Origin: Glaucostegus cemiculus
Taxonomy: Eukaryota
Reading direction: 5' to 3'
Assembly (NCBI GenBank): GCA_976551045.1
Contig: CDPCPM010000285.1
Span: 558,001-622,000, forward strand
DNA: 64,000 nt
This document shows, piece by piece, positions 2,841 to 52,847 of the stretch. The stretch's first letter is position 1. Every line of letters begins with the position of its first letter. A program made the translations under genes and the position numbers. The notes under the pieces were generated by a model that saw nothing but the letters and a program-made list of their open reading frames with translations, was not told the origin of the DNA and searched no databases.

Positions 2841-2975
2841 GAGTTGAAGGAATCGGCCACCGAGCTGCTGTTCGGAGGACACGAGACGACGGCCAGCACC
2901 GCCACCTCGCTGGTTACCTTCCTGGCGCTGCACCCCGAGGTGGTGCAAAAAGTCAGACAGGAATTGCAGGAGCAG
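2841..2975 (+). CDS. CYP26A1: CYP26A1 exon 5 (I-helix)
   Basis: Pyrimidine tract then GTGAAG| acceptor; ELKESATELLFGGHETTASTATSL (P450 I-helix GxETT motif); CAG|GTAAGG donor; 135 nt. Confidence 0.95.
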
Positions 2976-3141
2976 GTAAGGCACCACATGCGGCGGCGCC
3001 CGGCCACCCGAGCCTCCCGCTGCGGGCGCCCGGACCGCAGGATCCCACCTCACTCGCTTCACATTGAATGGCATTCAAACTCCAGTCCCGGATTTTGTTG
3101 GTTTTTTTGCTTTTAAATGTGGCCTCTCAATGGATTTGCAG

Positions 3142-3297
3142 GGATTACTGAGCAGCGACGTTAGAGAGAACAAACAAATCACCATTGAAGCCCTCGAACA
3201 ACTTAAGTATACCGGAAGCGTCATCAAAGAAACTCTTCGACTGAGTCCCCCGGTCCCCGGAGGGTTCCGCGTGGCCCTAAAGACCTTCGTGTTAAAC
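3142..3297 (+). CDS. CYP26A1: CYP26A1 exon 6 (K-helix ExxR)
   Basis: TTTGCAG| acceptor; GLLSSD...LEQLKYTGSVIKETLRLSPPVPGGFRVALKTFVLN; AAC|GTAAGC donor; 156 nt. Confidence 0.95.
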
Positions 3298-4450
3298 GTA
3301 AGCTGATATTACAGACTCCCAAAATTAAATCTTGTGCAAAATAACGTGTGGACCTTTTGAAACAACGCACCTAAAGGAATTTTACAGGGACATTCAGAAA
3401 ACAAAGTTTCAAAACAGCCGATATTGTTTTTAAAAATCCAGACTTTATAATGTTTAAGTAGTTACCAAGTATCCATAACATATTCAACCGGTTTCAAGCA
3501 AATTAAAATCCGTATCACTTTACATATAAATAAGAGAATAAAGAATGAGGGGGAAGTTGCATGAAGTGAAAGATAGCCATATTATATTTCAATTGCAGTG
3601 GAGACAGGAGGGGGGTGGATGACCTATTCCTGTTCTTTATATCCATAGGCAACAATCATGTATTCTTGCAATTAAGCAAGGTTACAAAAGCTTTTTTTTA
3701 TCCCCATCACAATCTCAGATAACAGGAGAAATACAATGAACAGAAAAATGTTGACAATAGCTGATCAGGTAGGGATGTAGAAACAAAAACAAAGTCATGG
3801 AGCAGGAGGATCTCCACCAGAACAGTGGGGGAAAAAAATCAAATAGGAAAGTGTGTGTTTCTGAAATTGTGGAGCTTCAGGTAGATTTACAAAGATTCAC
3901 AGTACACTCCCAGAATTTTGATTCCAGACTTTTGTCTGAAAAATGAAAATGTAGTTTAGATAGTGGAAGTGGCACTAACTGACCAGGAGGAATCACTGGC
4001 GAGCACCAGTCCTCTTGAGCTTTCAAGACTGCGATCAGGGAAGGGATGATGTCTGCAAATAGTTAAAGTGTACATGGATTAAAATAAAAAAAAGTAGGAA
4101 TTAGATAATTGTAAACAGATTGATTGTTAACTGTTGCTGCTTGAAATCAAGTATACCTTAAGAGAGCAATAACATAGGATAATTTACAATGAATTTCACA
4201 CAAATACTTTGGAGCTCACAGCCTTCTAATTTTGGTTGTTTGTGGCTCCAGTGACAAAGCTGAGCTACTCAGAATGCTTGGACAAATGTTGTCAACTTTC
4301 AGAGATTGCACTGCAATAATATTTAGTTTCAATTTTGTGAATCATTAAGATGCAACAACCCTGTTAAATCACCAGATGGAATTCACACTGCTCAGAAGTT
4401 CTATATTGCAGAAGCTATATTACTTTAAAATACCTTCAATTTTTTTCCAG

Positions 4451-4795
4451 GGATACCAGATACCAAAAGGCTGGAACGTTATTTATAGCATCTGTGACAC
4501 TCATGACGTTGCAACTAATTTCTCAAAAAAGGATGAATTTAATCCCGATCGCTTCATGGAGGGTTGCCTGGAAAAGGATGCGTGCAGATTCAGCTACATT
4601 CCATTTGGTGGAGGCTCAAGGGGTTGTGTCGGTAAAGAGTTTGCCAAGATCCTCCTCAAAATCTTCACAGTGGAGCTTGTCAGGGCTTGTGACTGGCAAC
4701 TTTTAAATGGACCTCCTACAATGAAAACCAATCCCACCGTATACCCAGTGGACAATCTGCCAACAAAATTTACACCATTCCCATACAAAATCTGA
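4451..4795 (+). CDS. CYP26A1: CYP26A1 exon 7 (PxRF and heme-binding FxxGxRxCxG; stop)
   Basis: TTTTTTCCAG| acceptor; GYQIPKGWNVIYSICDTH...FNPDRF...PFGGGSRGCVGKEFAK...YPVDNLPTKF; TGA stop. Spliced CDS is 1485 nt = 494 aa. Seven coding exons and adjacency to MYOF favour A1 over B1/C1. Confidence 0.96.
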   Translation, partial: GYQIPKGWNVIYSICDTHDVATNFSKKDEFNPDRFMEGCLEKDACRFSYIPFGGGSRGCVGKEFAKILLKIFTVELVRACDWQLLNGPPTMKTNPTVYPVDNLPTKFTPFPYKI

Positions 4796-5568: not shown

Positions 5569-5574
5569 TTTATT
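5569..5574 (-). terminator. Candidate MYOF polyadenylation signal AATAAA
   Basis: TTTATT on + strand, about 430 nt downstream of the MYOF stop, in an AT-rich UTR-like stretch. Confidence 0.55.
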
Positions 5575-29932: not shown

Positions 29933-31765
29933 TCAAAAGAAACATGAGAAAATACAATCAAATGTATAACTAAATATTATGAGTCAAACAAAAGGCATCA
30001 CCCATTAACGATAAATACTTAGTGGTAATGACTTTGGCAAAGGACACTTGGAGACACTCAGCTGGCAAAGTACGCACACTTCCCATGTATATAGTAAATT
30101 CAGAGGAAGCCAAGAAACTAGGATGTAATGAAGCAAAAGGACAGAGGATTAAAAAGGTACAAGAGATGAGGTCAGGCTGGAGCAGGACATCTCGTTGTGT
30201 TGAATGTTCCACCATTCCCCACCTAAATCCCAGTTTAAAATGTCCAGAGCTACAAAATGAAGGAATCAGAGTGATTATGGTAAACAATGGGACACCTTGA
30301 ACTCCAGAACAATAGGAATCACAGTATCTCCTCCAAAGTTTGATTTTGCATTAATCATCATTATAATAAAATGTATTTGTGCCAGTGATTATAGGACTTG
30401 ACTTTCTGCTGTGCATTTAATGGGCAGCCAATGTGCAAATTAAAAATAATAGGCCAGATCACAGCTTGTGCGCACTGGCTCTGCAACAGCCTGCAGCCCA
30501 TCCACTTTCTAGTGTTCTTCACGTCTTCAACTTCTGCATCTGTGTATCACACATGTCAGAGGTCAAATGCTGACATCTGCCTTTTCACTCTGCTGCTAAA
30601 CTCGTCACCAACTGGCAGTGGCTCTGGCACACAAATGGCGACTCCATTTATTTGAACAAAGGTCACCACATTCATTAAAAAAATTAAGCTTTTCATTTAC
30701 TTCTTTAAAAAATTCATTGCATACAAAATTTATTACTATTTATTAAAACATTCAAGCCATTTGTTTTTAAATATCTCTGAAGACTAGGCTTTTGCCAATA
30801 CTAAGCCATCTAGGTCATGCTGTGGGCAAGGCCTCTGGTTCAGTCACCCACAGCCTAGTCATGGAGTGCTCTAACTTGGGCTATGGAACAGCAGGCGAGT
30901 TCAGCTAAAGAATTAGCAGCGTGCTGGGTGCAGGCAGGAGTGGGATGGAGGATAATCTGGCTCTATAGGAATGTTAAAGCCAATATGCTGGCCCAGTTAA
31001 CTAAATAGCAGAGTGACATAAGTCAACCCCCATCTCAATCTCCTAAAAGTACTGGCAAATTTTCACATCAAGAACAGCAGGCGTTGCGAATATGCCACTC
31101 TCTTAAAGGCCAAGGGCTGGTAAAATTCCTGCTGACCCTATATACTTTGTACACAATTATCAGTTTCATTCCTCGAGATTTACTAAGTGAACAGAGGAAA
31201 CTGTATTTCTACAATGCACGGTTGCCCAAAAAACACTGAGGGTAGTGAACGTATCGAGAATCCATGGGAAACAAGATACACAGAGGCACATACCGACAGA
31301 CAGTGGCATACACAGGCAGGCAAGATTGAAGCATGCATTAGAGTTGACAACAAAACCAGTGTGGCCCCAGTTTCCAAGTCCACACTCACCCAACAGACAG
31401 GAGACATGGAAGACCTCAATGACAAACCGCATCAGCAAAGTATAGGAAGATCTCAACTTTATGTCCAAAACTCCTCAAAATAGACCTACTGCTACACAAA
31501 AAACTCATTTTAAAATGTTAAGCAAATCTTGTAAACCAAGCCAATGCTGACCAAAATGATAGCTTATCAGATAAGTGAAGTCCTACAAGAAATTATTTGA
31601 TTCTTAAATCCAGTTCCTGACAGCTTTGTATTTACACTAGTAAAGAGCTTATAATTCCAAACAATGCAATGCAAAATCAGTCACGTCACAAGCACAGGCC
31701 ACAGGTGTCTGGAAAATGGTATAAAGTGACAATGGTGTAAGATAGAGTGAGGCACGGGTGGTTTA

Positions 31766-31895
31766 ACCATAGAATAATACAGCACAAAACAGGCCCTTCG
31801 GCCCACAGAATTGTGCCGTCCTTCAAACGTCACACAATCTAACTCTTTTCTCCCACATATCCCTCTATCCCACATTCCTTTTTCTTTATTCATGC
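31766..31895 (-). mobile_element. CR1-type 3' tail fragment
   Basis: ACCATAGAATAATACAGCACAAAACAGGCCCTTCGGCCCAC..., reverse complement of the tail at 24530-24650. Confidence 0.7.
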
Positions 31896-32361
31896 TCCAA
31901 AATCTAAGTGGGAATGCTCATTCTCAACACTGATCCTTTAACACTAGCATCACCCAGTTTTATAATTACATGAACCATTTCCCCCTAATGGTCAACTGCA
32001 CAATGCAACATGCTATAATGGAGGTGCTCTCTACTGGTTCTTAACTTGCACCCAATTCAAAACCAGGCAGGAACCAACTAGACTTCCCTTGAGGGAAGCT
32101 ACTAACTTCTACATCCATTGGAAACCAGCCACAACTGAGAATTTGCGTAGCTAACTAAAGTGGTAACATTGACAATTGCAATATATCTTACAGGTCACCA
32201 CACAGGACAAATATCCTTTCCTCACACCAGTATATTGATCACATAAGTAGAAAGAAAATGCTTACATAAAGAAAGCTGTGAATTCAGAGTCTATAACAAA
32301 CCACAACAAAATACTTTGTCACTCCAGCCTCAGTGATTCCCAAGCTCTGGTACTTTTAAGA

Positions 32362-32595
32362 TATCAGAATCAGATTTATTATCACTAACAGATGATGTGA
32401 AATTTGTTATTTTGCAGCAGCAGTACAGTTCAAGATAAAGTTACCATAAATTACAAAAATAGTGCAAAAAAAACTAGTGTTCATGGACTGTTCAGAAATC
32501 TGAGGGCGGAGCAGAAGAAGCAGTTTCTAAATCATTGAGTGTGGGTCTTCAGGCTCCGGTACCCCCTCCCTGATAGTAGTAACAAGAAGAGGGTG
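32362..32595 (-). mobile_element. Rex1/Babar-like LINE 3' end (family assignment tentative)
   Basis: ATCAGAATCAGATTTATTATCACT...GTGAAATTTGTT...GCAGCAGCAGTACAG...TCTTCAGGCTCCGGTACCCCCTCCCTGATAG; short (ATTCTG)n-type tail on the - strand. Confidence 0.5.
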
Positions 32596-33305
32596 TGTCT
32601 CAATTAAACCAGGAAATGAAAGGAAACATGTAGTTAAGCAGTTAACAAACACATGCAGAAAAAAAGTCTCTCTCATAATAATCTTTATAGCTTTGGTATT
32701 CCTTCCAAATATCAAACAGCTGCAACATTTTCTTTTAATCCATTATAAAAATATTAATCCAGAAATAAAACCTGCAGCTCACACCATGTTTCTCAGTCTC
32801 TTTCGGAGATGGTCTTTCATTCTTAACCTAGAAGACATATCTTCCAAAGCTTTCAGTGCCTCTCTAATCCTTCTATCTTCCATCTCTCTCACAGGCTGCA
32901 TACAAGCCTACAACCTTCCCCTCGCTGCTCAGGGTGACCTGGAAGTCCTCAGGTCAGTTTGTTGCTGGCAAAGTCACAATAATTCTGGACAGGGTTACAA
33001 GTCTGGACAAGTCAAGATGTTTTACGACTTGAAAGATAAATCTGTCCAATAATTTGAAGAGTAGTTTTAACGGTGATACAAACTAGAGATTCGGGAAGCA
33101 ACAGCAACAACAGGAAAATATACGGTACACCAGGCAGTATCTGTGGAGGAAAACTTAACATTTCCGTCAATAGCCTTTCAATAGAGCTGGGAAAAGTTAT
33201 AGATAAAGAAGGGTATTAAATAAACATATTGCAATTTTAGCAAAGACAAGGCTCTTTTAAGTAGGCTGCACCAATCAGATCTTCAACTTGTTTGTTTAGT
33301 ACTTC

Positions 33306-33550
33306 AAGTCACAGAGCATGGAAACAGGCCCTTCGGCCCAACCAGTCCAGGCTGACCAAGATTCCCATCCAAGCCAGTCCCATTTGCCCACATTCCTCTA
33401 AACCTTTCCTATCCATGTACCTGTCCAAGTGCCTTTTAAATGTACCTGTATCAACCACTTCTCCTGGCAGCTTGTTCCATATACTACTGACCACCGTCTG
33501 GGTGAAAACATTGCCCCTCAGATTCCCATTAAATCTCTCCCCTTAAACCT
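33306..33550 (-). mobile_element. CR1-type LINE 3' end
   Basis: Minus-strand VSSIWNKLPGEVVDTGTFKRHLDRYMDRKGLE plus GGGCCGAAGGGCCTGTTTCCATGCTCTGTGACT tail. Confidence 0.8.
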
Positions 33551-36500
33551 ATCAACAAAGGTGCAACCCCCAAAAGGGAAAACTTGAAGGTTTTTGTAGT
33601 AGCATTAGGAAAGCCATTCAATCGAATCATGGCCGACATGTCCATGCTCTGGTTCCAAACATGTCCAGCAAAAAAAAATATCATTGCCCATTTTGATTTT
33701 TTCGCTGAGCTAGCAAAGCAGCTGAGGACGTATCTCCCAGATTTCAAGTATCTTTTGCATCAAGAAATGTTTCCTGACATCACCCTGATCAGCCCACCTC
33801 CAGTTTTAAGGTTATGCCCTCTTGTCCTGGACTCTCCAAACAGAGGAAATAGTTGCTCCATCAAATCCTTTAATCATCTTAAAATACCGCAATTAGATCA
33901 CTCCTTAAATCATCTTTACTCAAGGGAATACAAGCCTAGTCTATGTAATTGGTTCTCAATTTAATCCTTTTAGTCCGGGTAATGATTATCAGTTGCTGAA
34001 AAAAAACAAAATGGGGGTGGACAGCAATACTAAGAAATGAAGCCCATTCTTCCAATTTGATGTTTTATTGAATTAAATATGCAGCAACAGAAAGATGTCA
34101 GGTTCTAGCAATACCCCACCTTCACTGCATTTTATTTAAGGGGAGAACAAAAACACAAGAGAAATCTCATTTCACAACATACGCTTCTCCGATTCAAAAG
34201 AATTCCATTCACCTGAATGAACAGCATATTTTGCATAATATTTTAATCAAATCTTTCCAAGTTTGAATGGTTAAGCTGCTTAACTAAATTCCACACACTT
34301 GTGATCCATGGACATGAACAGACGTTGACATATCGTACTAAGCATATCCATGCGTAGTTACAGAATACTGTCCTTTACATCTCCGTGCCCCACCAAAATA
34401 AAGCTCATTACATCCAGTACCAGATGGACTACATCATGAATCTGGTGCTGTCAAATGCCTCAAAGATTGTACATCATCTTGCTACATTACAAGTCAGAAT
34501 CTCCTTTTCAAAAATTGCACAGACAACAATGGAACTCTCATTTGTTCAAAATAAATATTTAAATGTAATTCTGGATATAATTAACATATATGCATCTTTT
34601 AATATATAATTAGATTTCCATAGATATATAAATGCAGACAGAAACTGTTATTCCATTATTAGCAAGTTTGGCTTGAATTTCAGTTTTTTACTTTTGGTTC
34701 AGAGCTCCCGCCCCAGCCCTCGATCATTGGTTGGTGAATAATTGGGTATTTTTAGTTATTAAAATAATAATGAAATGCAACTGAATGGTAATGACAATAA
34801 ATAATACCCACACATTATTCAAAGTTGACTACTTCTGCCTACAATTTTTATTTTTTATTATTAGGAGTTTGCACTGACCAATCAACTCGCACCCTACCCA
34901 CTTATTCCCCCACAGTTACCTATCAATGTAACAGAATATGTCAGTAACAAATGATTGGTCCATTGTCTGTACACAAATTCTGTACTTTGAAATTCACATT
35001 ATTAAAATACAAAATATATTGCCAAAGGTTTTAATGCTGAAGTAAAAAAATAAAATCGGCCTTTTGCTCCCCACCCCAGTTACCACCTGTAAAAGTCAGG
35101 CCCAATAAGCAGTGCCACCATCTGGTCCCAATCAATAAAATCAGCAAATCTATTTTTAAACATTTTATGATAAATTGTATGTAGCTGAAGATTATAATAA
35201 AATAAAATTTAATTATGAAATTTAACAAATTAATGCATTTTCATAGTGACAGATTTAGCATACAAGAATTATAAAAATAAAAGATAGGATTGTACTTATC
35301 ATACAATTGCTTCTCAATAAATAAGTCAAAGTTTTCAGAAGGAGCCATGGTATTGACACAATATACAAGTGTCCCTGTGGTATAATAAATAGCTATGTGT
35401 TACGGCCATCATCCATAACAAGATACCAGAGGTACCATTAGCACTCTTAAGTGTTATATAAATCAAATAGGGCATAAAAAACTGTCTAGGGCATTCTCCA
35501 TGGCATGCAAACTGCATGAAGAGCCCATCTGCTCGGCTGACACTACACAAGTTGAAGGCTTTGGCTACCATGCAAGAAGATTAAACCTACATCCATCAAG
35601 CTGAAAGATAATTATTGTCTTTGTCAGACACCATCTGTTTCTGTAGCATTCTTGAATTCAAAAGGACAAGCTGAAACTTTCCTCTGAAGTTCATGTTTGA
35701 CAGTAGCTCCAGGCATTTCTTTCATACCTATACTGCAGCCTCTGACTGCACTCTAGCATCTTGCAGGCTTCATATCTGCTCACCCACATACCTCAAGAAA
35801 CACAATCAAACGTGATGGTCTTTCCTTAAAATTCTTAGGTCAGGTGCTAGTTCTTCTCTTAGAAAGTCATTTTGACTGTATAATTCCTTCCTGTGTACAA
35901 AAGGTCTACCAGATAAAAAGATAGATTTCCTTCATAGTTATGTTTTTCTAAATATAAATACAACATTCAAATTTAGGTAGTTCTTCTAGGTCCTGTTCAC
36001 CTATCACACCATGTGCTCATAGATCCACATTGGATCAGGAACATCTTGATTTCACATCTTCCACATTGTCTTCCAATTTGGTGCTTTCCAAAGTTCTGGA
36101 AATCACATCAAACATTTTGCCTCCATTCAAGGTAACCACTCCTGGTCTTAAATACCAGTTGGTTCATTAGAGTCCGATGGCATAGCCTTGATAGCACCAG
36201 GGCTTCAGGCACTGCGGTCAGGAGGCTCTGCCCTCTTCCCCACCCCCACCAAAGATGCCCCAAGACTGATGAAACCGGAGGCAGGGTTTTGTCTCTTGTA
36301 GAAGCATTGATTCTGGCTTTGAAAACCCCGATGGTCAGAGACATTAAAATAGAAGTGAATCAAGAAATTTAAAAACTTGCAAATAATTAAAAACCTTAAC
36401 CCAAAGCAAAATTATTTAGAAGAATTTGCAACCCCCTTTGCTTCCCCAACACTGCCCTTTGAAATCAGTGGGATCTTGGATCCTGCATCAGATCTGCCAT

Positions 36501-37943
36501 GGCATGGGATTTACGGGGCAAGTCCTTTGCATGATGCTCCACACACATGCAAGTCTGGGACTCTCCAGGATTTTCAACAGCAGAAACACTAGGAACATGA
36601 TAAGTGTCCACTTAGGCATGGTGGCAGCACTAATGGAGCTGGAATTAAACAGGAGACCATTCTGCTTATAGCTTCTCTGCCAGCTCCTTGGTGGTGATAT
36701 TCTACTTACCACCAACACTAATCATCAGTTAGGAGGGCAAAAGGATAAGGCCAGGTTAACTTCAAATCAGGTGCCCTTGAGCCCTGCATTTTACTAGCTG
36801 TTGCACATATTTTGTTTCTGCAGCCCTGTACATCCAATTATTCTGGAGGCTTGGCTGTTGTGGCCGTCCCATAAAGCAGCATGGGCCATACATCGTGACT
36901 GTCCTCAACAGTTAATCTTTAAGCTCTGCTCAGTACTATCCTGATGATCGTTTGTCAGCTCACCACTAACACACACTTTTGAACAGTTTTAAAATAATTG
37001 ATCAGAGCCATTTTAAAAATTGTTGAAATGGATTTAAAAGTAAACAAAGTTATTTAATAAACACCCTTAAGTGCTAATAATGAAAAACATTAAGTTTAAG
37101 CAAACTAAAAAAAAAATGAAAATAAACTACTTATATGCACTTAGCATTTCAATGAAGGCGAGAAAAGCCATTTGTGTGAACAGGGTTGTACTACATACAG
37201 CAGTCATCCCTGATGTAAAGCTGACAGGCCAGATGTTTTGCACCCATTCCCTCACCGCTGGACACATGTTCCACCCCTGGACTATGCCAGGTCTGGTGAA
37301 TGAACATCAAACAGAAGCAGGAATAAGCCATTCAGCCACTCATACCTGCTCCACCATTCAAGCACTTTCACCTTGCACTAACCCCATACACAATATCCCT
37401 TTGACATCTAAAAAAGGGAATCAATCTTAGTCTTAAATATACACAATGACAGAATCTCCTGTCTTCATGGACAGTTAATCCAAAGATTCAGTACCTGCTG
37501 AATGACAACATTTCTCACCTGTCCTGCACAGCTGGCCCCACATTCTGAGAGCATGAACTCTAGCTGCAGTCACCACACCCTACAACACCTAGCCAGAGAA
37601 ACCAACTCTCTATTCTGTTGAGCTTGTTGAGGTAATCCCTTTCTTCTGAAGGCAATGGGCCACAACATTTAAACTTTCCTCACACAACAAACCCAACCAC
37701 TCAAATCAATTTGGTGAACATTTACTGCACTCCCTCCACTGCAGATATATACTTCCTTAGGTGAGGAGACCAAAGCTATATCCCAGATGTCCCAGAGCCT
37801 TATATCAGGGCAAGGTATCTCTATCCTTCCATTCAAATTTTCTTGCAATAGAGGGGACTAGAACAATTTGTCTTTTAATTGCTTGCCAATTCTTCATTTC
37901 ACTTCTTGGCAATTTGTGCTAAAGGACACCAACACCTTCCAAC

Positions 37944-38185
37944 TTTTTTTATTTACAGCGTGGTAACAGGCCCTTTCGGCCCAACGAGCCGGTGCCACCC
38001 ATCTTAAACCCCCAAATTCACCTACCCGTACGGCTTTTAGAATGTGGGTGGAAACTGGAGCACCCGGAGGAAACCCATGCAGACACAGGAGAACGTACAA
38101 ACTCCTTACACCCAGCGACAGGAATTGAACCCCGATCGCTGGTGCTGTAACAGCGTCACGCTAACCGCTACACTATCGTGCCGCC
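37944..38185 (-). mobile_element. Full-length tRNA-derived V-SINE (HE1-like), nested in an older CR1 fragment
   Basis: Minus strand: A box TAGTGTAGCGG (38165-38175), B box GGTTCAATTCC (38121-38131), V-domain GGAGTTTGTACGTTCTCCTGTGTCTGCATGGGTTTCCTCCGGGTGCTCC, CR1-like tail GGGCCGAAAGGGCCTGTT, A-tail. Confidence 0.85.
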
Positions 38186-39204
38186 TTTCCCAATTAAATT
38201 CAATTTCTCGATTAAAGAATTTTAAAAAATCTTTCCTTAGTTTCTCAAGTGGATGACCTCATATTCCATATTATCCTCCACTTACCACGTGCTTGTCCAT
38301 TGACTGAGACTGCCCACTACATGGCAAGGTGTCTTTGCATCCACCTCACAATCCACAGGGCTACCCTGCTTGGCAGCATCAGGAAAGCTAGACATAGTGC
38401 ACTTGACTCCCTCATTATAGGAAGTAAATTGTAGGGGGCCCTAGACAGATTCCTGAGCAGCCTACTGGTTACACACTCCCAGTCATGACCTGTTTAATCC
38501 TCTTGCTTTCTGTTTCTTAATCAATCCTCAAACCATCCCAGTATATTATTCCCATAATGTGCACTCTAATTGTGTGTTTCATAACCTTTTGAAGATCCAT
38601 ATACATCAATTGGTTCACCGCCAACTGCTCTGCTAGCTACAACCTCAAAATTCAAAATGATTTGTCAAACACAATTCATAAATTCAGTCTAATGTTCTGT
38701 AAGGAAATGGAGAAGAGAAAGCAGACCCCCTCCCCCATCCAGAAATACACAAGTATTTTGTTTTACTCATTTCCTTCACTTGTAGCAGATAATTTTAATT
38801 CTTCTATCATACTTCCATCAGTAAATCTCTAGCACCATTTGGAGGAAGTTTTTGGAAAGAATATTCACTTTTACAGATCTATTAAAAGGTGCAGGACTTA
38901 AAGTAAATAATGAAAAAAAATAATGAACTGATCACCATTTTGTTTACCAAAATATCACAATAAATCTCAAATACTCATGTTTAAAATCTGGGCTTCTACT
39001 TAGACTGTCTTACCAAACTTGAATAATGGTGCAATTCTGTCAGATTTTGATCTGCCTTATGAGCAATGTCTACAAATAATTAAGACAGCTGCTTGTAACA
39101 TTTTGATGTATTGCAAAACACAAAGACCTTACTACTACGCTTGCCAGTTTCCTCATCTGTAACTGGACTTGCTGGAATTTTCTCCAAAAGTTCACAAAGG
39201 ACAA

Positions 39205-39705
39205 AAACAAACGGAGTTCAGCAGGTCAGCCTGTGTGGAGGGAAATGGACAACTGGCTTTTCAAGCTGAGACCCTTCAGCTGGACTTAAAGAGTAGAGGG
39301 GAAATAGTCAGTACAAGGAGGAGAGGGGCGGGAAAGAGCTGGCAAGCAAGAGGCGAGGAGAGGTTGATTGGCAGATGGAGTCTGGTGGAGGAGGGAAGGG
39401 GGCCAATAGCGACAGAGGCTGGGAGGTGGGGGTGGAGGCAATAAAAGGCTGCAGATTATGGAATATGATAGAAAGGAACCAAAGTGGAACCAAATGAGGG
39501 AAGCGTGGTAGGAACAGTGGAGGGAGGGGACTGAACAGGAGGAGTGCATGGGTGATGGACAGATGGAATAAGTGGGGGCAGGGAAAGAGACCTGGAGGTG
39601 GGGTGGGTGGGGGCTTCCTTGGAAAGAGTCTGTGTGGGAGGGCCTGGGTGGGCGCAAGAGAGAACGTCACCTGAAATTGGACAACTCAGTGATTCAATGT
39701 TCTCG
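39205..39705 (-). mobile_element. Decayed Penelope-like pLTR with ORF end
   Basis: Purine-rich on +; hammerhead core mutated (CAGCTGAAGGGTCTCAGCTTGAAA); ...TCCAATTTCAGGTGA matches the SNFR* end of the 20430 copy. Confidence 0.65.
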
Positions 39706-40129
39706 CCATTGGGTCATAGACTCACACACACCTTCACAAAGGACAACTTTTACTTTTAGCTCAAAAAAAGTTTCATAATTTAAAATCACAGGTATTCCAA
39801 TTATTTCCTAAAGCAAATAGCTTCCCAGTGTGTGTTTTCTATGCCATCATTTTCCAGTGAAGTTGCAGGCTTTCAAAGCAGATTGGAATGCTCAGAATGG
39901 CCAACTAAAACATTCAGGAAGTTGATGCACAGGTGCATGGTGGAATTTGCCTTGCATTTGAGACAAAATGGCTGAAGATCTGTCTTGTGCACAAAAGCTT
40001 GACCATCCAACCAGGCCAAATCATAATTCTATCAGCAAATGAAAATAAGAATGGATGGTGCAAATCAGACAGCATCTAAAAGAGCAATAACCTACTCAGT
40101 GATCCAAGTTTTGGGTTCTGTCATGACTA

Positions 40130-40500
40130 CAAGTGTACAACCTTGGTCCAAAGCAGGGCTTGAGATGAAATGAGGATGATTGCCCTTGACATTGAGACAG
40201 CACTGGACTGTGGGTTGCACCAAGGTGTCCTTTTAAAACTAGTTAGATGGAAAACCAACAGCTGGAGTCATATCTAGGACACGAGGAATTCAAGGCCCAA
40301 CCACTGCATCCATGATCTTCCCTCCATCCTACTGTAAGAGGTGGGATTGCTTCCTCAGATGTGTGTGGTGTTTAGTTCCTTTTGCAGTTTCCGAGATAAC
40401 AATGGAGACTGCATGGCAACCTCTGAGCAAAGCCTGTGCTGAGGAGTGGCCAGTAATATTGCCATCAGTTGTGTTTTTAGATGCAAAAACCAGCAACTGT
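40130..40500 (+). mobile_element. Decayed CR1/L2-group LINE RT fragment (related fragment at about 43340-43760)
   Basis: ATTGCCCTTGACATTGAGACAGCACTGGACTGTGGGTTGCACCAAGG ~ ALDIxxAFDxVWHQG RT motif; similar GCATTTGATCAAGTGTAGCATCAAGGAGCC at about 43420. Confidence 0.45.
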
Positions 40501-41153
40501 GGAGGTGCAGAGACTTAGTCCCTCACCCCCCAAAGCACAGAAATCACTTAAAGTGAGTGAATAACTACAAGTGTGGGTCTATTAGCTTTTCAGGAGATGA
40601 TACATTACCATCAACATCATGGCGGCCAGCCAAAGGGAACTCCACTTCAAGTACATCCCATTTGGTTCATTAAAGCTGAACTGGTGATGGTGAAAACACT
40701 GAATTGGTGGAAGTTATCCATTGGGTTCAATGGTGTTCTTCAGGGATGGATACTTGCCGTCCTTATCAAGCCTCATCTGCATGTGGTTCTTTCTGAACTG
40801 CCCAAGCAAGCCACTACAGTTATAAAAACTACTCCTATGAGCAAGCAAATTTGGATACAAACACAAATTTGGATGCTGAACTCAGTTAATGACTTCTGAG
40901 AATGTGCTAAAATATGGAATATCATCCCATCGAGCACCCAAGCAACATCCAACACCCACGGTCTCAGAATCACTTCTTTCAGACTCCAGCACATAAAACT
41001 CCTTCCAACAGGACAGATTCACTAAAGGCAGCATAACAGTCATTACACAACTGTAGTTAAAAGTGAGCCTGGGAGACCTCACCAAAGCCACAAGGCACCA
41101 TAGGCTGCAAGGCAAACATGATCACCACTTGGTGTCCCTTCTCAACTAATGAA

Positions 41154-41475
41154 GGCTGCAGGAGTACGTGCTGAGGGACGCACTGAAGCTGGGCACAGCC
41201 AGTGCAAGGGCTCGGTGGGGAAGGACGGCAGTCTAGGGTTCTTCTGCCACAGGAGAGGGAAGGGTGGGGGCAGGCGAGGAAGCCCCTCAAGTGTTGTAAA
41301 TATGTGACTGGGGTATCACCCCAGGGAGCCACACGGGTGGCATCGGTGCTGTGTTCTGTACATATAAAAAGGTAACACTAAGAATGGAACTGTACACGAA
41401 TGTAATGGTTTGAACTGTTTTTATCATTATTATTGTATATAGTTTTTTGTGAATGAAGTTTATTTTGTTAAAAAA
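41154..41475 (+). mobile_element. Tx1/L1-clade LINE 3' tail with poly(A) and 10-bp target-site duplication
   Basis: Close match to 54202-54532; flanked by AACTAATGAA at 41144-41153 and 41476-41485. Confidence 0.85.
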
Positions 41476-42239
41476 AACTAATGAAATCAGTCCTACCTCA
41501 TGACGAGCATTTTGTAGATTAAACATGAAGGGTGACAAGAATGAACACTGTATGCCATGTGTGGGACTTCAATGTCCATCACCAAGAATGACTTGGGAGT
41601 GCCACAAGTGACTCTGCTGCCCAAGTCCTGAAAGACATTGTGGGCTTATTGCAAATGGGTGACAGAGACAAGGTGAAGGGAAAGCAATACTTAACTTGGT
41701 CCTTACAAGTCTGCACACAGGCAGCAATAAAATCCCATCTCCATAATCAAGCTGCCAGCAGAAATGCAACAACATTGAGGACTCCTGCGAAGTCCCAATG
41801 CCTGGGAGCACACAAGTCTTGTGCAGACAGAAGCAGTGTACCATTTCTCAAGCTTCTCACTGACCTCTTCTCCAGCCACCTCTTTTCCCATTTTTTTTTG
41901 GGGAGGGGGAGGAAGAAATCAAGAGAGATGGAAATCCATGGCTCCCACATTGACCTTATTAGCCACCTCAGAACCCATAAAGCCAGAATGGAAGCCAATC
42001 ACCCTCAATTCTGAGGGACTGCCTAAATAGCTTCCACCACAATGTGCAATCAAGGCTTGGCACATTGGCCATCCTGCAATAACCAAGATCGGAATGTGAA
42101 TGTGGCTTTGAGTGCAGGAGAGAAGCCCTGGACCAACAGGTTTTACCTGAAAATGTAGTCCAAACGAAGCCAAAGGCAGCCTAAACATGGACACAATGTG
42201 CTGCAGAAAGAGCCAAGAAATTCCATGCAATTAGAGCGG

Positions 42240-42740
42240 GAAAAAAAAAGCTGAAGATGCTAGAAATCCAAAACTAAAGACTTGACAAGTAGCATCGTCA
42301 GGGGAGAGAAACAGAGTCAACACTTCCAGCCACGGCCTTTGTCAGAACGGAATGTGAGAAGACATGCACGTCTTTAACTGCAGACAGGGAATGGGATGGA
42401 GAAACCAGAGGGAATGCCTGAGAGAGGGTGCAAACCAACATTGTCAAGGTTACTTTAAAAACTGGTAGCTGGAGGTGCAAAAGAAAAAAAATTGTACCAG
42501 AAACTACAGAAATATTTTGATGAAGGGTGAAATGGTGTTCCCCAAGCATACACTGGACATCTTTGGAGCAATAAAAGTTGAAGACAGATCAGAATGGGAA
42601 AGAGACGGAAAGTTAGTGTGACAGGAGACCAAAAGCTCAGGGTCCTCCTTATAGACTAAACAGAGATGTTCTGCAAAGTAGTCAACCCCTCTGTGCTTGG
42701 TTTCTACAATGTGGAGGCCAATCGATTTGAACAAACCTCT
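42240..42740 (-). mobile_element. Older Penelope-like relic (GIY-YIG fragment plus pLTR)
   Basis: Minus-strand SIGLHIVETKHRGVDYFAEHL ~ CGLLYIGETKRRLGDRFAEHL; pLTR-end motifs at 42250-42350. Confidence 0.6.
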
Positions 42741-45017
42741 AGTTCTGTCATAACCAGCCCTATGAGACCATGGGAGATAGCTGCTTCATGGACATGCTCG
42801 TATTCAGCAATGACAGATTAGCACAAGAGTTTGGAACCACCTCTCGGGAAGAAACATCAGGTCAATCTGGAAGTCCCTGCCCGCACAAAAGTGCAGTCTT
42901 CCTCGTACTTCATAACAATGATGGTCATTTGGCTCAAGACCTATGCTAAGTGCTCAGAGCAATCCCATAATCACCTTTCCCCCATACATACTTATTACCA
43001 CCACCCACCCCACCCAATTCTCCTACCAGACATCTACACTTGGAACAATTTACAGTACTCAATTAACACAACAACCAGCATGCCTTTGGGATGTGAACAT
43101 ACTAGGACACCCCGTGACCTTCCAAATGCACACTTTGCTCCAGAACTGGCCACATTTCTGGCCAAACTGCCACACTCTGGCTGCCACAAGATACCTGCTG
43201 GATGCAGTAGAAAACTGCCCTCTGCATCTGGTTCATAAAATCTCTCAAGTTACCACTCCAGTTTACTCTCAATTATCAGCAGATTGGACGTGGGCAGTGT
43301 GGTGACAGGTGTTTCAGTACCTCTTGCACAAGACCTCATTACAGCTCAGCTTAAACATGGATGAAGGAACTAAACTCTGGAAGTAAATCGAGCAATCAGT
43401 TTCAATTGACTTTAAAGGTAGCATTTGATCAAGTGTAGCATCAAGGAGCCTTAGTAAATTGAACTCAAGGGAAAATCAAAAAGGTAAAACAGGAATCAAA
43501 AGGAGAACAAAGCTAGGTGGTGTGACCATTGGAAGCCATTATTAGCATCAGGTCCTTTTTAAGGAGTTCCTCAGGCCCATGGCCCAAACAACTTTAGCTG
43601 CTTCACTAAAAGCCCACCGAAAGGCCTTTATCCCTCAATGATTATTAACATTTAATTATATCCACAACTTCACAGATAGTGAAGCAGTCTTTACCCACAT
43701 GACGCAAGACCTTACAATATTCAGGCCGGGGCTGATGTCAAGTAACATTCAAGCAATGATCATTCCAACCACATCTCCTTAACACTTTTTACCATGGATT
43801 CCTTAACAAAGGCAGATAGATGGCATTAAGATACAGATCAGCATGATCAACCTGAGTGGCAGAACAAATGGGCTGAAGAAATAGCCCTTTTCTTTTCCCA
43901 CAGACAACAGTCAGATATTATCTCCAGAATGAGTCAAACTGCCTCCTGTGACATTGTGATATCAGTGGAGCCCCTCATATTAGAAGTGACCATTCACCAC
44001 ACATTCCACTGTAGCAGCCAAACAGATGGCGATTGGAATGGGTCAAAGTTACTGCCTTGTATCACTATCAACAAGGTAGAAGTGGCAATAAATACTGTCC
44101 CTGCTGACACCAGGCACCTACTGGGAAAGAAAACATATTCCCAATTCAGTCATTGGTTTCCGTTGTTGGTTTCTGATTAAATGCCATCCAATTTGCATAT
44201 ACTTGATATGCGACTTCCACTGGAAGACTGTTAATTCCAAAATCAACTCTATATTGATTCAACACAAACTGGTACTTTGCTACATTCCTAGAATAGCACA
44301 TGGTGAGGCAAGACATCAAACATAGTGGATGCCAGTAAGGGCCACGATGAGGAAATCTCCTTCAACGACCAGATGCAGCTTCCTCCCACGACAGCATTTT
44401 CTTCCTGTCTCTGCTCCAACCGCAGTCTCAGTTAGTTCACCTTTCTCTAACAGTGGCTGCTCAAGGTTCACTCTCCCTTCTTGTCATTGTCATTCGCTTG
44501 GAGTCCATTACTTCCATCATCTCTCTTCACTACTCTGCAAAATATGTACCTTTGCTCTACCTTTTTCAAGATGCATTATTTCAAAAAAAAAAATTGTACC
44601 TTACAAATAACTATAATTTTCCTTACAATTGTACAATTCCTTACTATCTCAAAAATCTACGCAAAGCAACTTTACCTGATACTATTCTAGGCCAAATGAT
44701 TTTCACATTTTCCCCTCCACATTTGTGTTTTCACTTATTTTTCCAGTTCTCTTTCCATCGATCAGACCAACTTAATCCTGATGAGTTAGTCACTAAGCAG
44801 CAAATGTGTAGGGGAAAAGGAAGCACTACACACTGTTGGGTATTTTCACAACCACACATCAACTAATACAAGTAGCAGGTATTTTCTGAATTTTTAATTA
44901 AATTAAGCCTCAACTCTTTAACCCACGTATGCACAGATCAATAAGCCTTTAAAGTATTTACAAATAGTTATTTTCAGCTAAATTGTGCAACCTGCAGCAA
45001 ACTGTGGCTTGTTCCAG

Positions 45018-45371
45018 TGAACTCCCAGCCCTGCAGCATGTGAAATTGGATAGGAAGCTTTGACAGTCAATGCTGCTGTGACTTGTCCTGGGGAAGCCTC
45101 TAATATGGGGGGGGGTCAAACAGAGTTCAGTAAACTGATGAACCAACACAATATCAGCTTTCTCAAGGTACTCCTTTCACTTATCTCAAATCCTGCTCGT
45201 TATTAAACTGATGGCTTACACTAAGTAAATAAAAGAACATTTTCCCCTGCCAAATGACCCAGACGAGGCATATGCAGAATTCTGCCGACAAAAACTGTGT
45301 TGGGTTGATTTAGACTGCTGCACTGCGACAAATACGGACAGGAGTTCAAAAGTTCAGATGAACCATGAACT
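45018..45371. promoter_or_regulatory. Candidate retinoic-acid response element cluster (DR5 + DR2 + DR1 + extra half-sites)
   Basis: GGGTCA-AACAG-AGTTCA (DR5, 45113-45129); AGTTCA-AA-AGTTCA (DR2, 45343-45356); TGAACC-A-TGAACT (DR1 on -, 45359-45371); single half-sites at 45018, 45139 and 45255; not in a recognisable repeat. Confidence 0.7.
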
Positions 45372-48300
45372 TTGCCATTTCGCAGCAGGCTACTCCAGAA
45401 ATATAGCCAAAAAGAAAAAAAGTGGCTCAAGTCCCTCAGCGCAATTTTTGTGGGCTTTAGGGAAAGTATGTTTGTCAATAAAATAATTTTATATCCCGCT
45501 GGGAGAGAGGCCAGGGGGAGGGGGGTTGGTTTGGAGGGGGGGGTGGGAAGAAGAGGAGGGAAGGAAACTATTGTAGCTGTGGATTTGCAGGGTAAGATTT
45601 GCTTTTAACCCTTGCATAGATTTCCCAATCACACACCCAGTAGATCTGCACAGATGAGCTGCAAAAGAAAATTCCGAGAGGTTTAGTGTTTTGGCTGCTG
45701 TGTTCCTGTTGCTGCAGCACTATTCATCCTGGGCAGGAAATCAGTGGAAAAATCAAAACAAATGGGTCATGACTTGCTTTATTTATTTAAGACCGAGCTG
45801 CATGTCATCCTGTGATGTGGCCTTGGCCCCAACTATGCAAAACAGCACTAAGCATAACTGGGCCAGGAATGATAACAAACACATGTTGTATGTGCCTTTA
45901 ACATTATGCACTTTCAAGGAAATCACTCATTCGGATTTTCAAAGGAATGATAACATGCACATATCTTGATGCCAAGAGAGGCAGCTACAGTAACCCAGTG
46001 GAACAAAATCCTACAAGACAAGCAGGCTAGAACCAATTTGTCAGTTAGCAGATACGTTTTGCCGTACTTGTGCACCCCCACACAAAAAAATAACATTTAC
46101 TTAGCAAAACCCTAACAAGGCTTCAGGGAATAATAATAGTGCAGATACAAGCTACAAGAGCTTTTTCCAATTAGATCTAAATTGGCCTTAAGTCAGAAGA
46201 GAGAATAGGCTATTCACATAACCATAAACTTGAAGTAGAGGATTATAAAACAAAACTAAAAGACCAAGTCTGAAAGGGCACTGACAAGTTTTTTTTAAAT
46301 CTCTTGGAAAGGAGCAAAAACCCACGCCATACTTTTGGGAAGAAAATAATGAAAAACATTGCAATGTGGAAAAGATTGTGGTTAGATCCTGATAGGAGGA
46401 AGGAGGAGAACTTTTAAAATTGTATAAACACAGGACACTGATGTGTATTTATTGACAATTATACCCCCTTCAGGTATCATATGATTAGATATTACATTTG
46501 AGGCTCAAATTCATACTTGTATTATTTTTACAAACAGAAACATGAGAAAACAGATTTTCAGAAGCCAAAACGTCACACTGCAAGTCCAGAAACACCATCT
46601 AAGGCTACCTTTGTGAAGGGGGCTCAGAAGCTGGCTCAGACAGTTAGGAATGACCTTCACCTGACTGGGGGTGACAGAATAGCTCGTTCATCACTCGTAA
46701 ATTACCATGAAATATAAACTTTGCTAACCTTTGTTTAGTAATTGGCTCCTATGGTAGTCATACCAAGGGTAAACTTAAGTGCATTCTACATAGTGGAGGA
46801 GAGTCCCTCCTCACATCAAACACAATAGATCTAACATTCCATTAAAGAAAGGAGAGGAAGTAGACAAACTGAACTATCAATAGGGTGTGACAAATGTTAT
46901 TCTGATTCATTTTGTTTTTAAAAAGAGGAAAAAATTACTCCCAAAAGAATTTCATAATTGTACCATGCAATGAAAGGGAGGTTGCAATCACTTTTACAAT
47001 ATAAATACTGAATCACAAAGAGCTAGTATTTTGAAGCACTGAATTGTTATTTTGTGGAATGAAAAGTGCAAGCAGATCTGTCTGTGAAGCAGTTCAAAAG
47101 GCACAATGGTGATAACAGAGAGAGGAAATATGGAACCAATTAAAGGATAAGAAATATAGCCATTGTGTCTGCATACAGTCCAGAGAAGAATTGGCTTTGG
47201 AACTATTGACATGTTCTGCTAAAGACCAAGTGGCAACAATAACACAGGCCTGACAGGTGCCAGGTTTACACACGTTTTGCTGGTTAGTTGTCTCAGTTAT
47301 ACTGGCATGACTACAGACATAGGAGTAAGTGGAGGGTGGCAGGACAGAACAAAATCTCAAAAATTCCTGCGTCATATACACTATCTTGCTTGGTACTGAA
47401 AATGTGTTCCCAAATACAAGAGTGGAAAGAGCGGAACAGTATGTAAGTTGTGTTTATAACCAGTGAAATCCCTGGGTTTGAACAGCTGTGTAACCCAAGG
47501 GGACACAGCAGCTTCCAACACAACCAGCAGGTGGCAGTGACACCCTCAGGAGGGTTCAGGTGGTCTCCCAACACATGGGAGGCAATGGTCCGCACACTTG
47601 GTTTGGGTGGGGTGGGGGGAAGCGACGGCAGGAGGTGAGGGCTGAGCCCCACATCTCAGTACCAAGCTGGCACACCTGGCCTGCCCAGAATCACCACAGG
47701 CAGCCTCTTCAAGCTGTGGAGGGCAGAGGCAAGCACCAAGTCCCAGCACAGAAGAGCACAGCTAATGTGCACGTCATTTTACAGTAAGGGAGGGGTATGT
47801 GGCCATGAAGGCCATGAGCATCATAATGAATCAGTACTGTAAATTAGGTCTTAGCAGCATACCAGTGTATCTATCCATTTGTATTCACTAAAGCTTGGTG
47901 AACATTTGTCCCTTGAGCAAGGTGGTGGGCACAACTATGCAAACAGAGGTGGCAAGGGTAAATTTACTGCAAGTATTTGAATCAAGATTCGATTTCACAA
48001 GGTGGAAATGCAATACAATTGCTACTGTTGCTTTGACACACTTCAGCAGAGGTATGCATAACTGATGAAATCAGTGCTCAAGTCTCGAAGCAAAGCAAAA
48101 TGGACATTTCAGGATTTTTAATCCAAGAAAAAAAGGGCTCAAATTGAAGTTTGACTCAAGGTAAACAAACATATACTGGGAGATTAGCAATGTTTTATGA
48201 ATGACTATTTCCTCAACCATTTACTTTCGCTGCATCCACAGATCCATGCATTGATGCATGCAATCTCTCCAATTACACTGACTTAGGATCTTAACTTTGT

Positions 48301-48984
48301 TTTTGCCCATACCTCCATTTCATTCTTCTTGTCTGGCACTTAATAACAATAAAGCTGTTCTTCCTCCTTTCCACCACCACCCCCACCCCAACTGCCTTCT
48401 TTGCAACCATGTCCTTCTCCTTCTCCTCTCTCGCCTCTGACCTTGTGGCACTTCTTTTGTTGGGAGAGGTTGCTTGACGAGATGCTGCAATCCAATTGTT
48501 AGCCACTCCCTCTAGTGGCCATGTGACCACCAAAATAAAATGGCTTCACAAACCAGCCAGTGACAACTGCAGAACTACCCATCTTGTTTTTACTTTCTAT
48601 CTGAAAGCACTGAACAGTGCAAATATTAATAACCTCGAGCAATCATCTCAGACGACACATTAAACTTCATCCTCTAACCACCTCAATTAATGTAGAGTTT
48701 GGCTCAATGGTAAGATCTTCTGTTGGTTTTCTTTCTAAACTCAACTTTATTTTTGGGCAGATGCCTTCCCACTACCCTCTCCCACACAACTGTTCTATCC
48801 TGGAACCCTTCCTTTGACCAATACTTCAGATCTTTTTGCAGCAACATGTTGGTATTAATTTCAATTTCTCTCACATCCCCCAAGGACTTGGTAGGTTATT
48901 TGGCCCTTGAGATAATCCCACTCCCCACTTACTTCCTTGTAACATACTTTTGCCCATTACCATCAACTCCACCCAGATTCTTCT

Positions 48985-49170
48985 CCTATACACCTACACC
49001 AGGAGCAATTTAAAATAGCCAGTTTACCCAGCATATCTTTGGTGTGTGGAATGAAACAAGAGCATCTGGGTGAAGTCATGTATAAACGCCATACAGACAG
49101 CACTGGAGGTCAGGACTAAACTAAGGTCATTGGAGCTGTGCAGATCTACCTGCTGCTCCACTGTGTCAAA
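48985..49170 (-). mobile_element. Decayed V-SINE-like relic
   Basis: GCATATCTTTGGTGTGTGGAATGAAACAAGAGCATCTGGG...ACAGACAGCACTGGAGGTCAGG...GGAGCTGTG resembles the SINE at 37944-38185. Confidence 0.45.
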
Positions 49171-51970
49171 GCTCTGAACTTACAGAACTGAGGTCCAGAC
49201 CTATAGTTAATTTTATATACACATGTTCCAGCAAAAAGGATCAACCACTAGGTCATCTGTTTCTCTATTTGTGGATGCTGCCTGGTTGGCTGAGCATTTC
49301 CTGCTTTTATTTACAATGGCTAAAATAGTCTCAAATAAGATCAGAATGAAAGTTTGAAGGGAAATATTAGTCAAGGGAAATAGTATGAACAGGAACAATA
49401 AGAGTGAAATGGAGGTACAGGCTAAAACAGATTTGAGGTAGTAAGTCACTTCAGTGCTAACTCTCAACATAGCTCCAATCCTGTTTAAAAAACAGGATTC
49501 TTAAATTGTTAATCATTTCCTTGGACAGTATACCAACAGTATTTTGTGGCAACACAAACAGGTATATTAAAATGTTTAGCCGCCTAGATCCCAGATGCAA
49601 GTACTAATACTTCCTCCCTCCATTACAAGTCAAAATTAAATTCTTGCCACTGGGTCATGCAGTGATGTAGAATCAGTGGATAGAATTTTTCCCCAAGTTC
49701 TTTACTCCATAATTTTTGTTGATTCCAGGTCATGGAGTTTACAAACTAAGCATCAATTTCCTTGGTAAAAAACTGTACCATTATGGGTGAATGAAGACAA
49801 GCTGTGCATTGATTATATATTGGCCTGAAGGTTGCTCTTTTTGGGAAATGGAGGAGGTAGCAAGGAGACTGGGGCAGAGTGGACAACAAATTATTTAATG
49901 ACACTTGAAAATAAAATGGGGAGCAGACCGTCTGTTCTGTGTCATGCTGTTAGAACAGTCTCTGGGTTGCTGGCAGGCTTTTAATGATGCCACTGAGCTT
50001 TTATTTCTCAACTATTTAACAAAGGCTCTCACAAAGTGCATTTAAGATTTTTATTTTGGAGGACTGATTTTCATTGCTTTTTTTAAAACTATCCTTTGTA
50101 ATCTTCAATGGGTAAGGCAGATATTATCTATAACAACCATCCGTCCAAGTAAATGTTTTGGAAAGCATCTTGCAACCAGTGATGGATGAATGGGGAGCCA
50201 AAAGCTGGCACAGTGAATTGATCATTGGAAAAGCTTCTTGGGTACGAATCTTCCTTTCTGCTTTTGGAATTTTGATAAGGGAAGTGAATGCATTGAGCAC
50301 AAACATTCTGATATAATCCTCTGCATACAAAAGGAGACCAATAAACTTCAGAGTCTAAATTAATTTTATCAGTGAAGGATGTCTACTGGGGTGAAAATTG
50401 GACCAGATGTTTCTACTCTGTTCAATAGAGAAAGGAAATCTATTCAATTTATTAGGACTAGAAAGTCAAAATTAAAGCAGGTCATCTGATCATACTTAAT
50501 AATGGCCACATTACATTCATTAGACTAAGCCCACAAGATGACTATTTTACACGTGGTTGCAAGACCTAGATCCCGTTAAATCAGATAAATATTGTGGTTC
50601 TGTTCCAGACAGATTACTCACAATACTTATCATTGACCACGTTCAGCGAATTAGCAAGGAGGACACCAGTGCAGGATTGCATCTACCTGGACAGGATCCC
50701 GTCATTACAAATAAAGTCTTCCATTTATATCCCTTTTTTCACATCCTACAAATTCAATTTGAGGAGAAACCATTGTTCCAATCACAGGCAACTGGCATAG
50801 TGCAAATATTAGGGGCCTGGATTGAAAAGCACTATAGGATTACCTTGACCCACTGCAGTATTGATCCATGATGGTTTGCCTTGAACCTTTACAATGTTAC
50901 TGAGTATACATTCCAATGTCATTGAATCAGGCTCACTGAACAAATCATTCTTTGACTGAAGCCACAAATACTGACATTTCCAGATATTCAGAATTGCACA
51001 GAAATCAACTAGGATGGTTGAGGTTAAATCAACTGGAACACATTTTATTCACCATCAATTGCTTACCCACGTCCCCCATTGTGGGAAATCAATGTGCAAC
51101 AGAATGAAGATTTGTCAATCCCAAAACTATAGTAAGATTCTTCATTAGCTACCTAGACTTGAGGGTGGATGATATCTGGAATGTGCACAGGTATGGTCTC
51201 ATTTTGCAAGGCTATACTTGCAAAGGAAGCGGAGCAAATGTTCATGAGTATGTCGTACAAGGTGGTCAAGTTGTGCTGCAGGTTAGAAGAATGAGATGAT
51301 CTCACTGCGTCTAACCCATCAAGTCCTGTAACAATTTTGCAGAGTCGGTCGGCCTTTCAGGACAGATAGAAAAAAGAAATCTTCAGTTGGAGGGGAGGGA
51401 GGATTGTGAAAGCTCAGTTATTCGGCTCACTCAAGAACAATGGAGAGAATTTTGATGTTAGGGAAGTTGCACAGCATGGGGATACAGCAGAAAGTGGTGC
51501 AGAGGTAAAAGATTACGCATGATCTTATCGAATGATGAGCTAATGACAACTCCCGTTTCTATTTCTGCATGTTCTTGTATTGATTAAAAAGATTTTCTTC
51601 AGATAATTTGGGATAAAATTGTCACAAGCTAAGCATGATTATTTGTTTTCTCAGGTACCAGAGAACACAGATATTGCCAATAATGCCAACTTGAGTGACA
51701 ATTGATGAGGTGTTATTTGCAATCATAGGTTGTCAAGATGTTTATCATAAAAAAAAACGAACTAATTCATCCCCTCCTGTTATTCCGAGATCTCTACAGT
51801 TAAGGCATTATTTTTTGATTCCAGCCATTTTTTGGAGCACATGCATGAAGACCACGAAAATTTTAACCACAAGATTCCAGACGGTATTGTTTGATAATTC
51901 CACTATGAAGTCTATACCTTGTATACCATTACTTCCAACAACCGTCTTCATAGGCAAATAAAAAAGACAC

Positions 51971-52157
51971 CTGCTGGAGGAACTCAAGAAGTCAGGCAGC
52001 ACCTGAAGCGGGAAATGGACAGTCAACGTTTTAGTTCGACACCATTCAAGGGCCTCAACCTGAAGTGTTGACTGTTCACTTGCCCCTGAAGATGCTGCCC
52101 AGCTCACTGAGATCCTCCAGCAGTTCTTCTATTTGCTTCAGATTCCAGCATCTGGAG
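51971..52157. repeat. Inverted pair of Penelope pLTR ends (imperfect palindrome)
   Basis: CTGCTGGAGG (51971-80) pairs with CCTCCAGCAG (52114-23); ACAGTCAAC (52019-27) pairs with GTTGACTGT (52067-75). Confidence 0.7.
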
Positions 52158-52847
52158 TGTCAGGTCACTGTCTTCATAACTTTAGATAATTAACATTCAT
52201 TTCAACTGAACTATGAATTTTAAGATCTTTTCTTCCCCTTTCAAAAGAACTTTCAAAAGTAATCATTACCACATGCTTAAGATTCTAATTCAATCTAGCA
52301 ATAAGAAAAATTATTCTGCTGCCTCAATTTTGCTTCAAAACTGATGATGCGTTTTAAAGTGGCACACCTGCTCATCATCTTGCTAACAAAAAAAACACTG
52401 ATGCAATAAAAGAAAACATGAATAAATATATTTTAAATAAAAAGACATTTTATTGGTGGTGCTCAACAAAATGCCCATTTATTCAGAGATATTAAAAAGG
52501 AAATGAAAATCACATTAAACTCATGCCCACAACTCCCACCTGCAGCAATTCTGAACTTCTGACTGCAAGGAAATTGTCAGCAAGGTCATGAGCCTTTCAA
52601 GGCCCAAGTTCCATAGGTCTTTCATCAGACCATCCGTAAAAGTAATATTCCAAATACCAGCAACTCCCCTGGGGTCTCGATTGGCCTGCACATGAACTCC
52701 ACTTTACTTTCACTGCTGGTATGATAGAGAGCAGGGCTGCAGCAGATAGCAAAGAACACTAACAATTCAAATGTTGAGGTCATGTCTGGACTTAGAAACA
52801 AGCAAAACTTTTTTTTTTAAACACCAGTTAAGGAATTACTTACTTAC

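Follow-up and report, generated by a model that had tools for sequence, protein, structure and literature searches.

A conserved cluster of retinoic acid response elements in a MYOF intron of Glaucostegus cemiculus: a candidate distal enhancer of CYP26A1

The CYP26A1 and MYOF locus

The window analyzed here is a stretch of 64,000 nucleotides from Glaucostegus cemiculus. It contains CYP26A1 and, on the minus strand, MYOF; both identities had been assigned in the original prediction and were supported by protein comparison. For the minus-strand gene, 38 exon matches were found, with 76% to chimaera myoferlin-like versus 59% to whale-shark dysferlin, and the paralogue on contig C19 showed the opposite pattern, being nearer to dysferlin than to myoferlin-like. 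MYOF and DYSF were told apart by this comparison of many exons; single-exon searches did not separate them. The exon carrying the MYOF stop codon was not found in the exon mapping. The element of interest lies in a MYOF intron that had been described as 23 kb long; it measures 22.9 kb and has GT..AG ends. The two main features are as follows.

123..4792, plus strand: coding span of CYP26A1, the putative target; its last exon matches named shark CYP26A1 proteins at 96%
29933..52846, minus strand: host intron in MYOF; no other intron between the 38 mapped exons is as long

Between the element and the CYP26A1 start there are 45 kb, as originally estimated; the start of a CYP26C1-like gene is ~92 kb away, and that of MYOF >114 kb. 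The CYP26A1 promoter is the nearest to the element. The second CYP26 gene is located 16–47 kb before the start of the window, and CYP26A1 lies between it and the element. We named it CYP26C1-like from its position, because CYP26A1 and CYP26C1 are neighbours in most jawed vertebrates (PMC10879103). On the promoter side of CYP26A1, there are direct repeats with 5-bp spacing (DR5) that precede the start of the window by ~60 bp and 1.1 kb (C285:557937-557962 and C285:556855-556871). After the proximal one comes a third half-site, so that a DR3 is formed as well.

Other repeats of this kind were seen in the surroundings. A second perfect DR5 (C285:625569-625585), with five half-sites in ~330 bp, lies immediately beyond the window, in a MYOF intron of 20 kb. 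Outside detected repeats, there are further perfect DR2s at 39215-39228, in the same intron as the element, and at 5846-5859, 1 kb past the CYP26A1 stop. The perfect DR5 at 16739-16755 overlaps a MYOF coding exon match and is probably incidental. A MYOF intron also contains 6.1 copies of a 68-bp unit, which are 99% identical (55042-55458). Elsewhere in the genome, C265, C339, and C899 hold at least 15 clustered, intron-free, near full-length P450 matches, which represent an expanded single-exon P450 family.

The linkage of CYP26 and ferlin genes had been called ancient, and it is real and old (PMC10879103). The distance from CYP26A1 to the last mapped MYOF exon is at most 8.4 kb here (window positions 4792-13192); the paralogous CYP26B1-DYSF gap is ~450 kb (C19:30676476-31127000), and the mouse Cyp26a1-Myof gap is ~197 kb. 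Of the mapped MYOF introns, the two that are longest (22.9 and ~20 kb) are found close to the CYP26A1 end. The further suggestion that the element could help explain why the linkage is kept was unsupported, as no counterpart was found on the DYSF side and the enhancer tested in mouse lies outside Myof. The matching DYSF intron, of 2.8 kb, had three half-sites and no DR, and the 600 kb of the CYP26B1-DYSF locus contained neither a DR cluster nor a similar sequence. An old paralogue could have diverged past detection.

Layout and copy number of the element

The original prediction listed nine RGKTCA half-sites in 354 bp (45018..45371). All nine were found, at 45018, 45113, 45124, 45139, 45255, 45343, 45351, 45359, and 45366, and so were the claimed DR5 (at 45113), DR2 (at 45343), and DR1 (minus strand, at 45359). 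Each of the three is perfect when retinoic acid response elements (RAREs) are defined as RGKTCA direct repeats spaced 1, 2, or 5 bp (PMC8950952). There is also an IR2 at 45351, within the block formed by the facing DR2 and DR1. The features of the element are listed below, together with their state in L047, the distant homologue described in the next section.

44976..45506, no strand: conserved non-coding core, candidate enhancer; fewer changes than the 3′ flank in organism D, 70% to L047
45017..45033, no strand: 17-bp block with a lone minus-strand half-site at 45018; identical in L047
45080..45099, no strand: 20-bp block without a half-site; identical in L047
45113..45129, plus strand: perfect DR5, GGGTCA-n5-AGTTCA (motif positions); conserved in L047
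45131..45144, minus strand: imperfect DR2; the perfect half is swapped in L047
45255..45260, minus strand: lone half-site; lost in L047
45343..45371, no strand: head-to-head block, a DR2 on the plus strand (45343-45356) facing a DR1 on the minus strand (45359-45371); one genome match, 29/29 letters in L047
45749..45790, no strand: another conserved block, beyond the span originally described, which includes a GGGTCA half-site (45764); its 42 bp match L047 at 86% (E 1e-7, the main alignment having E 1e-45)

Two of the predicted details stood in part. The imperfect DR2 at 45131-45144 is present, on the minus strand, and is not a fixed element, its other half being the perfect one in L047. The accessory words TGACAG at 45061 (Meis-like), TGATTTA at 45306 (Pbx/Hox-like), and CAATAAAA at 45476 (Cdx/Hox-like) all occur; L047 has kept none of them.

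The chance expectation had been put at under one half-site in a span of this size. The window contains 185 half-sites, which gives 1.0 expected per 354 bp. When 185 sites were placed at random, 0.14% of 20,000 trials had nine half-sites in any 354-bp span, and none of 300 order-5 Markov windows reached nine half-sites or three perfect DR1/2/5 in 260 bp. Half-site density alone was not unique: stretches of C19 hold 14–15 per 354 bp, and the one examined was a short tandem repeat. Density by itself is therefore a poor test of how rare a cluster is. The arrangement of the repeats was more distinctive, as the element was the sole place with at least two perfect DR1/2/5 within 300 bp among 1.064 Mb of the genome, which held 25 perfect DR1/2/5 (264 kb around the window, 600 kb of the paralogous locus, and 200 kb of 20 arbitrary stretches).

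The claim that this DNA is not repetitive was borne out. The 1-kb stretch matches the genome once, there is no tandem array at the element, and the element is within a 6-kb stretch that has no match to 800 kb of other genomic DNA. The four-half-site pattern of the 29-bp block had a single match in the 2.85 Gb genome. A transposon-derived RARE was considered and rejected, since many genomic copies would be expected and a single one was seen. The DR5-plus-DR2 spacing pattern had three genome matches, against three for the reversed control.

Conservation in nearer and distant relatives

Six coded organisms carry 13–30% of the sampled words of the window. Alignments were made to 4 of 24 runs, and contigs of organisms B, C, and D were used, E and F being left out. 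Organism A (run X4) had no contig across the core; gaps of this sort can arise from filtering, and neither this one nor the missing coverage 5′ of 44976 was given any weight. These contigs align from 44976 to ~46220. Because the intron flank aligns, we infer that B, C, and D are other cartilaginous fishes. Organism D differs at 27 of the 531 bp of the core (5%) versus 86 of 649 bp in the 3′ flank (13%; Fisher p 1.4e-6). Among the 40 of 148 substitutions listed for B, C, and D, 12 are at 44976-45343 and spare every half-site except the one at 45343; judging from its apparent position order, this list is probably complete for 44976-45343, and 45344-45371 lies outside the rows listed. The change at 45343, A to G in all three organisms, stays within RGKTCA and is the sole half-site change among the substitutions listed. 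TGACAG at 45061 is altered in these relatives, in such a way that the hexamer now reads on the opposite strand.

The distant homologue came from a scan of metagenomes with the pattern of the block, in which 13 contigs matched. Twelve of them had the pattern only, with no similarity in the flanks, and were dropped. The remaining one, L047 (record Ga0181612_134040, with 1 kb of flank on each side), aligns at 70% over 427 bp (window 45017-45421; E 1e-45), matches the genome only at this element, and is presumably vertebrate host DNA. A scan of viral sequences gave no matches. A similar near-palindromic motif is common to four other, non-homologous metagenome contigs (L044, L046, L048, and L055), where its flanks also resemble one another; it may be a microbial repeat element.

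The 29-bp block at 45343..45371 is letter-identical in L047. Seven of the nine half-sites are identical, and half-site letters agree at 51 of 54 positions versus 249 of 351 for the other letters. The search pattern required the four half-sites of the block, so the independent test is given by the remaining five, in which 27 of 30 letters are identical versus a background of 71%. L047 lacks the half-sites at 45139 and 45255 and has new ones opposite 45131 and 45302. In the DR5, both half-sites are unchanged (12 of 12 letters) and only one of the five spacer letters is identical, with the spacing still 5 bp. Selection on a spaced, two-receptor site predicts this pattern. Constant half-sites around a free spacer are a signature of receptor binding, which we predict here. 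The identical 17- and 20-bp blocks 5′ of the DR5, missed in the original prediction, point to binding by putative partner factors.

Comparison with relatives had been proposed as a check of the original reading, and it found the core conserved both in organism D relative to its flank and in L047. Purifying selection on half-sites and spacing is indicated by one distant homologue, L047, and partly by B, C, and D. The reading of the element as a constrained RARE module was thus upheld by the contrast of core and flank in organism D and by the half-sites of L047.

Candidate target, known enhancers, and alternative readings

The direct repeats DR1, DR2, and DR5 are bound by RAR/RXR (PMC8950952), and regions bound by these receptors often have several motifs (PMC4446430). 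Motif predictions, on the other hand, frequently miss the working RARE or its target (PMC8950952). In mouse F9 cells treated with retinoic acid (RA), Cyp26a1 reached a log2 change of 5.6 at 6 h, and Myof had values of −0.3, −0.6, and −0.1 at 6, 12, and 24 h and +1.7 at 48 h. In zebrafish under RA, cyp26a1 goes up and cyp26c1 goes down (log2 −7.2 and −5.3; PMC8608873 supplement). Judging by distance and RA response, CYP26A1 is the most plausible target, because it has the nearest promoter and is the RA-induced gene.

A distal RARE enhancer of Cyp26a1 is known in mouse (mm10 chr19:37,788,057-37,792,531), where it is RAR/RXR-bound, loops, and was tested by deletion; the ligand brings p300, H3K27ac, and the loop to the promoter (PMC13738024). 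An RAR/RXR peak is at the same place in a 2015 table from F9 cells (PMC4446430 supplement). With the Cyp26a1 start at 37,697,808, this enhancer is at +90 kb, intergenic, and ~107 kb short of Myof, which ends 201 kb from the Cyp26a1 start (mm9 coordinates). It was dissected only in 2026; that paper does not mention Myof, and its consulted portions make no comparison beyond mouse and human (PMC13738024). Like the element described here, it lies tens of kb from Cyp26a1 in the downstream direction, toward Myof, and has more than one RARE. In contrast, the mouse enhancer is intergenic, has two named RAREs, and is functionally tested, whereas ours is at +45 kb in a MYOF intron, has three perfect DRs, and is known from its sequence. 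The two therefore do not share the same position relative to the Myof exons.

For two of six published mouse oligos, 12 of 13 letters agree with the core, in each case within a run identical with L047 that is not the 29-bp block, in a test that was shaped after the fact; the other four matched no better than background. Random oligos rarely match so well (p 0.004 for the core and 1e-4 for the blocks), and both values overstate the case: the test used 6 of 8 RARE guides and ChIP primers, one match was noticed by eye first, and the score cut was set afterwards. The two matching oligos bear different RARE labels, and no clean geometry resulted. These matches are a hint of orthology with the mouse enhancer, which we regard as possible, though we lean against it. 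Among 9,956 of the 13,791 regions of mouse F9 RAR/RXR peaks, there was no chr19 row in places beginning 3797 or 3798 (19 places; the last 16 kb of Myof), which is weak evidence against an intronic mouse counterpart. A wider proposal is that both are the same ancient enhancer, whose order relative to the last MYOF exons changed in one lineage, and that the DR2/DR1 block is a four-receptor platform kept across distant vertebrates; this we consider doubtful.

Other known elements resemble the one found here. In zebrafish, cyp26a1 has RARaa peaks at 25, 33, and 48 kb on its downstream side, the side on which our element lies and at a similar distance, and RA opened chromatin at 34 and 45 kb; these peaks are annotated as intergenic, unlike our intronic element, and the same work does not list them among its RAR sites that fall in conserved elements (PMC8608873 and its supplement). 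A conserved RARE in intron 4 of skap1 acts on the hoxb cluster, as shown by ChIP and a transgenic reporter (PMC8608873). It is likewise a DR5-type, deeply conserved element in the intron of a bystander neighbour, but it belongs to another locus and has a DR5-like motif, whereas here there is a DR2/DR1 block besides. The CYP26A1 promoter RAREs R1–R3 (PMC10879103) and the upstream Cyp26a1 elements (PMC8643627, a mouse enhancer, and PMC4784732) concern the same gene and half-site type; they are upstream and proximal, and our element is distal and downstream. The consulted part of PMC11040003 had nothing further on the site, and neither PMC5435891 nor the supplements of PMC7259794 had any yield. 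A search of the open-access literature found no RARE in a MYOF intron and no shark CYP26A1 enhancer. The class of element is already known, and what is new here is the conservation of this RARE module.

From its sequence and by analogy with mouse, the element is probably an RAR/RXR enhancer of CYP26A1. The mechanism we propose draws on established RAR biology and the mouse locus, to which the present data add the motifs, their position, the single copy, and the constraint on half-sites and spacer length. RXR/RAR dimers would occupy the DR5 and the DR2/DR1 block, and RA would exchange a co-repressor for p300, with acetylation of the chromatin (H3K27ac). A loop over the final MYOF exons may then bring the element to the CYP26A1 promoter, where there are further DR5s. 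CYP26A1 would be boosted and the signal cleared, in a negative feedback, and MYOF would host the element as a bystander.

DR1 is a binding site for other nuclear receptors as well, and binders of DR1 or DR2 other than RAR/RXR include COUP-TF, TR2/TR4, HNF4, and RXR homodimers. We think it unlikely that the element, read by RAR or by these other receptors, serves mainly the CYP26C1-like gene or acts as a silencer or tissue switch. That gene is in the same cluster, its zebrafish namesake is strongly lowered by RA (PMC8608873), and the invariant block includes the DR1 and IR2; however, the DR5 has the canonical RAR/RXR spacing, conserved with a free spacer, and it is CYP26A1 that intervenes and is RA-induced. 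Regulation of the host gene would fit the location inside MYOF and the rise of mouse Myof after 48 h of RA. The remote MYOF start and the unchanged Myof values up to 24 h, which point to an indirect effect, make this improbable.

Constraint on RNA, as a hairpin or a hidden exon in the MYOF pre-mRNA, appears very improbable. On the transcribed strand, the near-palindromic block does form a small hairpin (z −2.1, matched by 8 of 200 shuffles), but its L047 counterpart has z −0.4 and the whole core z +0.9, there is no Rfam match, and the DR5 pattern fits protein binding and not pairing. As for an exon, the longest stop-free run is 66 codons, and gaps relative to L047 break the frame. A chance cluster or repeat remnant is scarcely credible. 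The window was selected from a large scan, and repeat-like stretches can be denser in half-sites; yet the single copy and the independent conservation in L047, together with organism D, have already largely refuted this reading.

CYP26A1 feedback sets RA levels in vertebrate embryos. For the RAR/RXR enhancer favoured here, the exact bases to mutate are now at hand, including those of the unusual invariant DR2/DR1 block. If it is orthologous to the intergenic mouse enhancer, the enhancer would have moved into, or out of, the intron of a neighbouring gene. The element is also a candidate for comparison with a human disease signal downstream of both CYP26A1 and MYOF (PMC13393102). The compact, conserved element suggests that long-range RA feedback may be old in jawed vertebrates.
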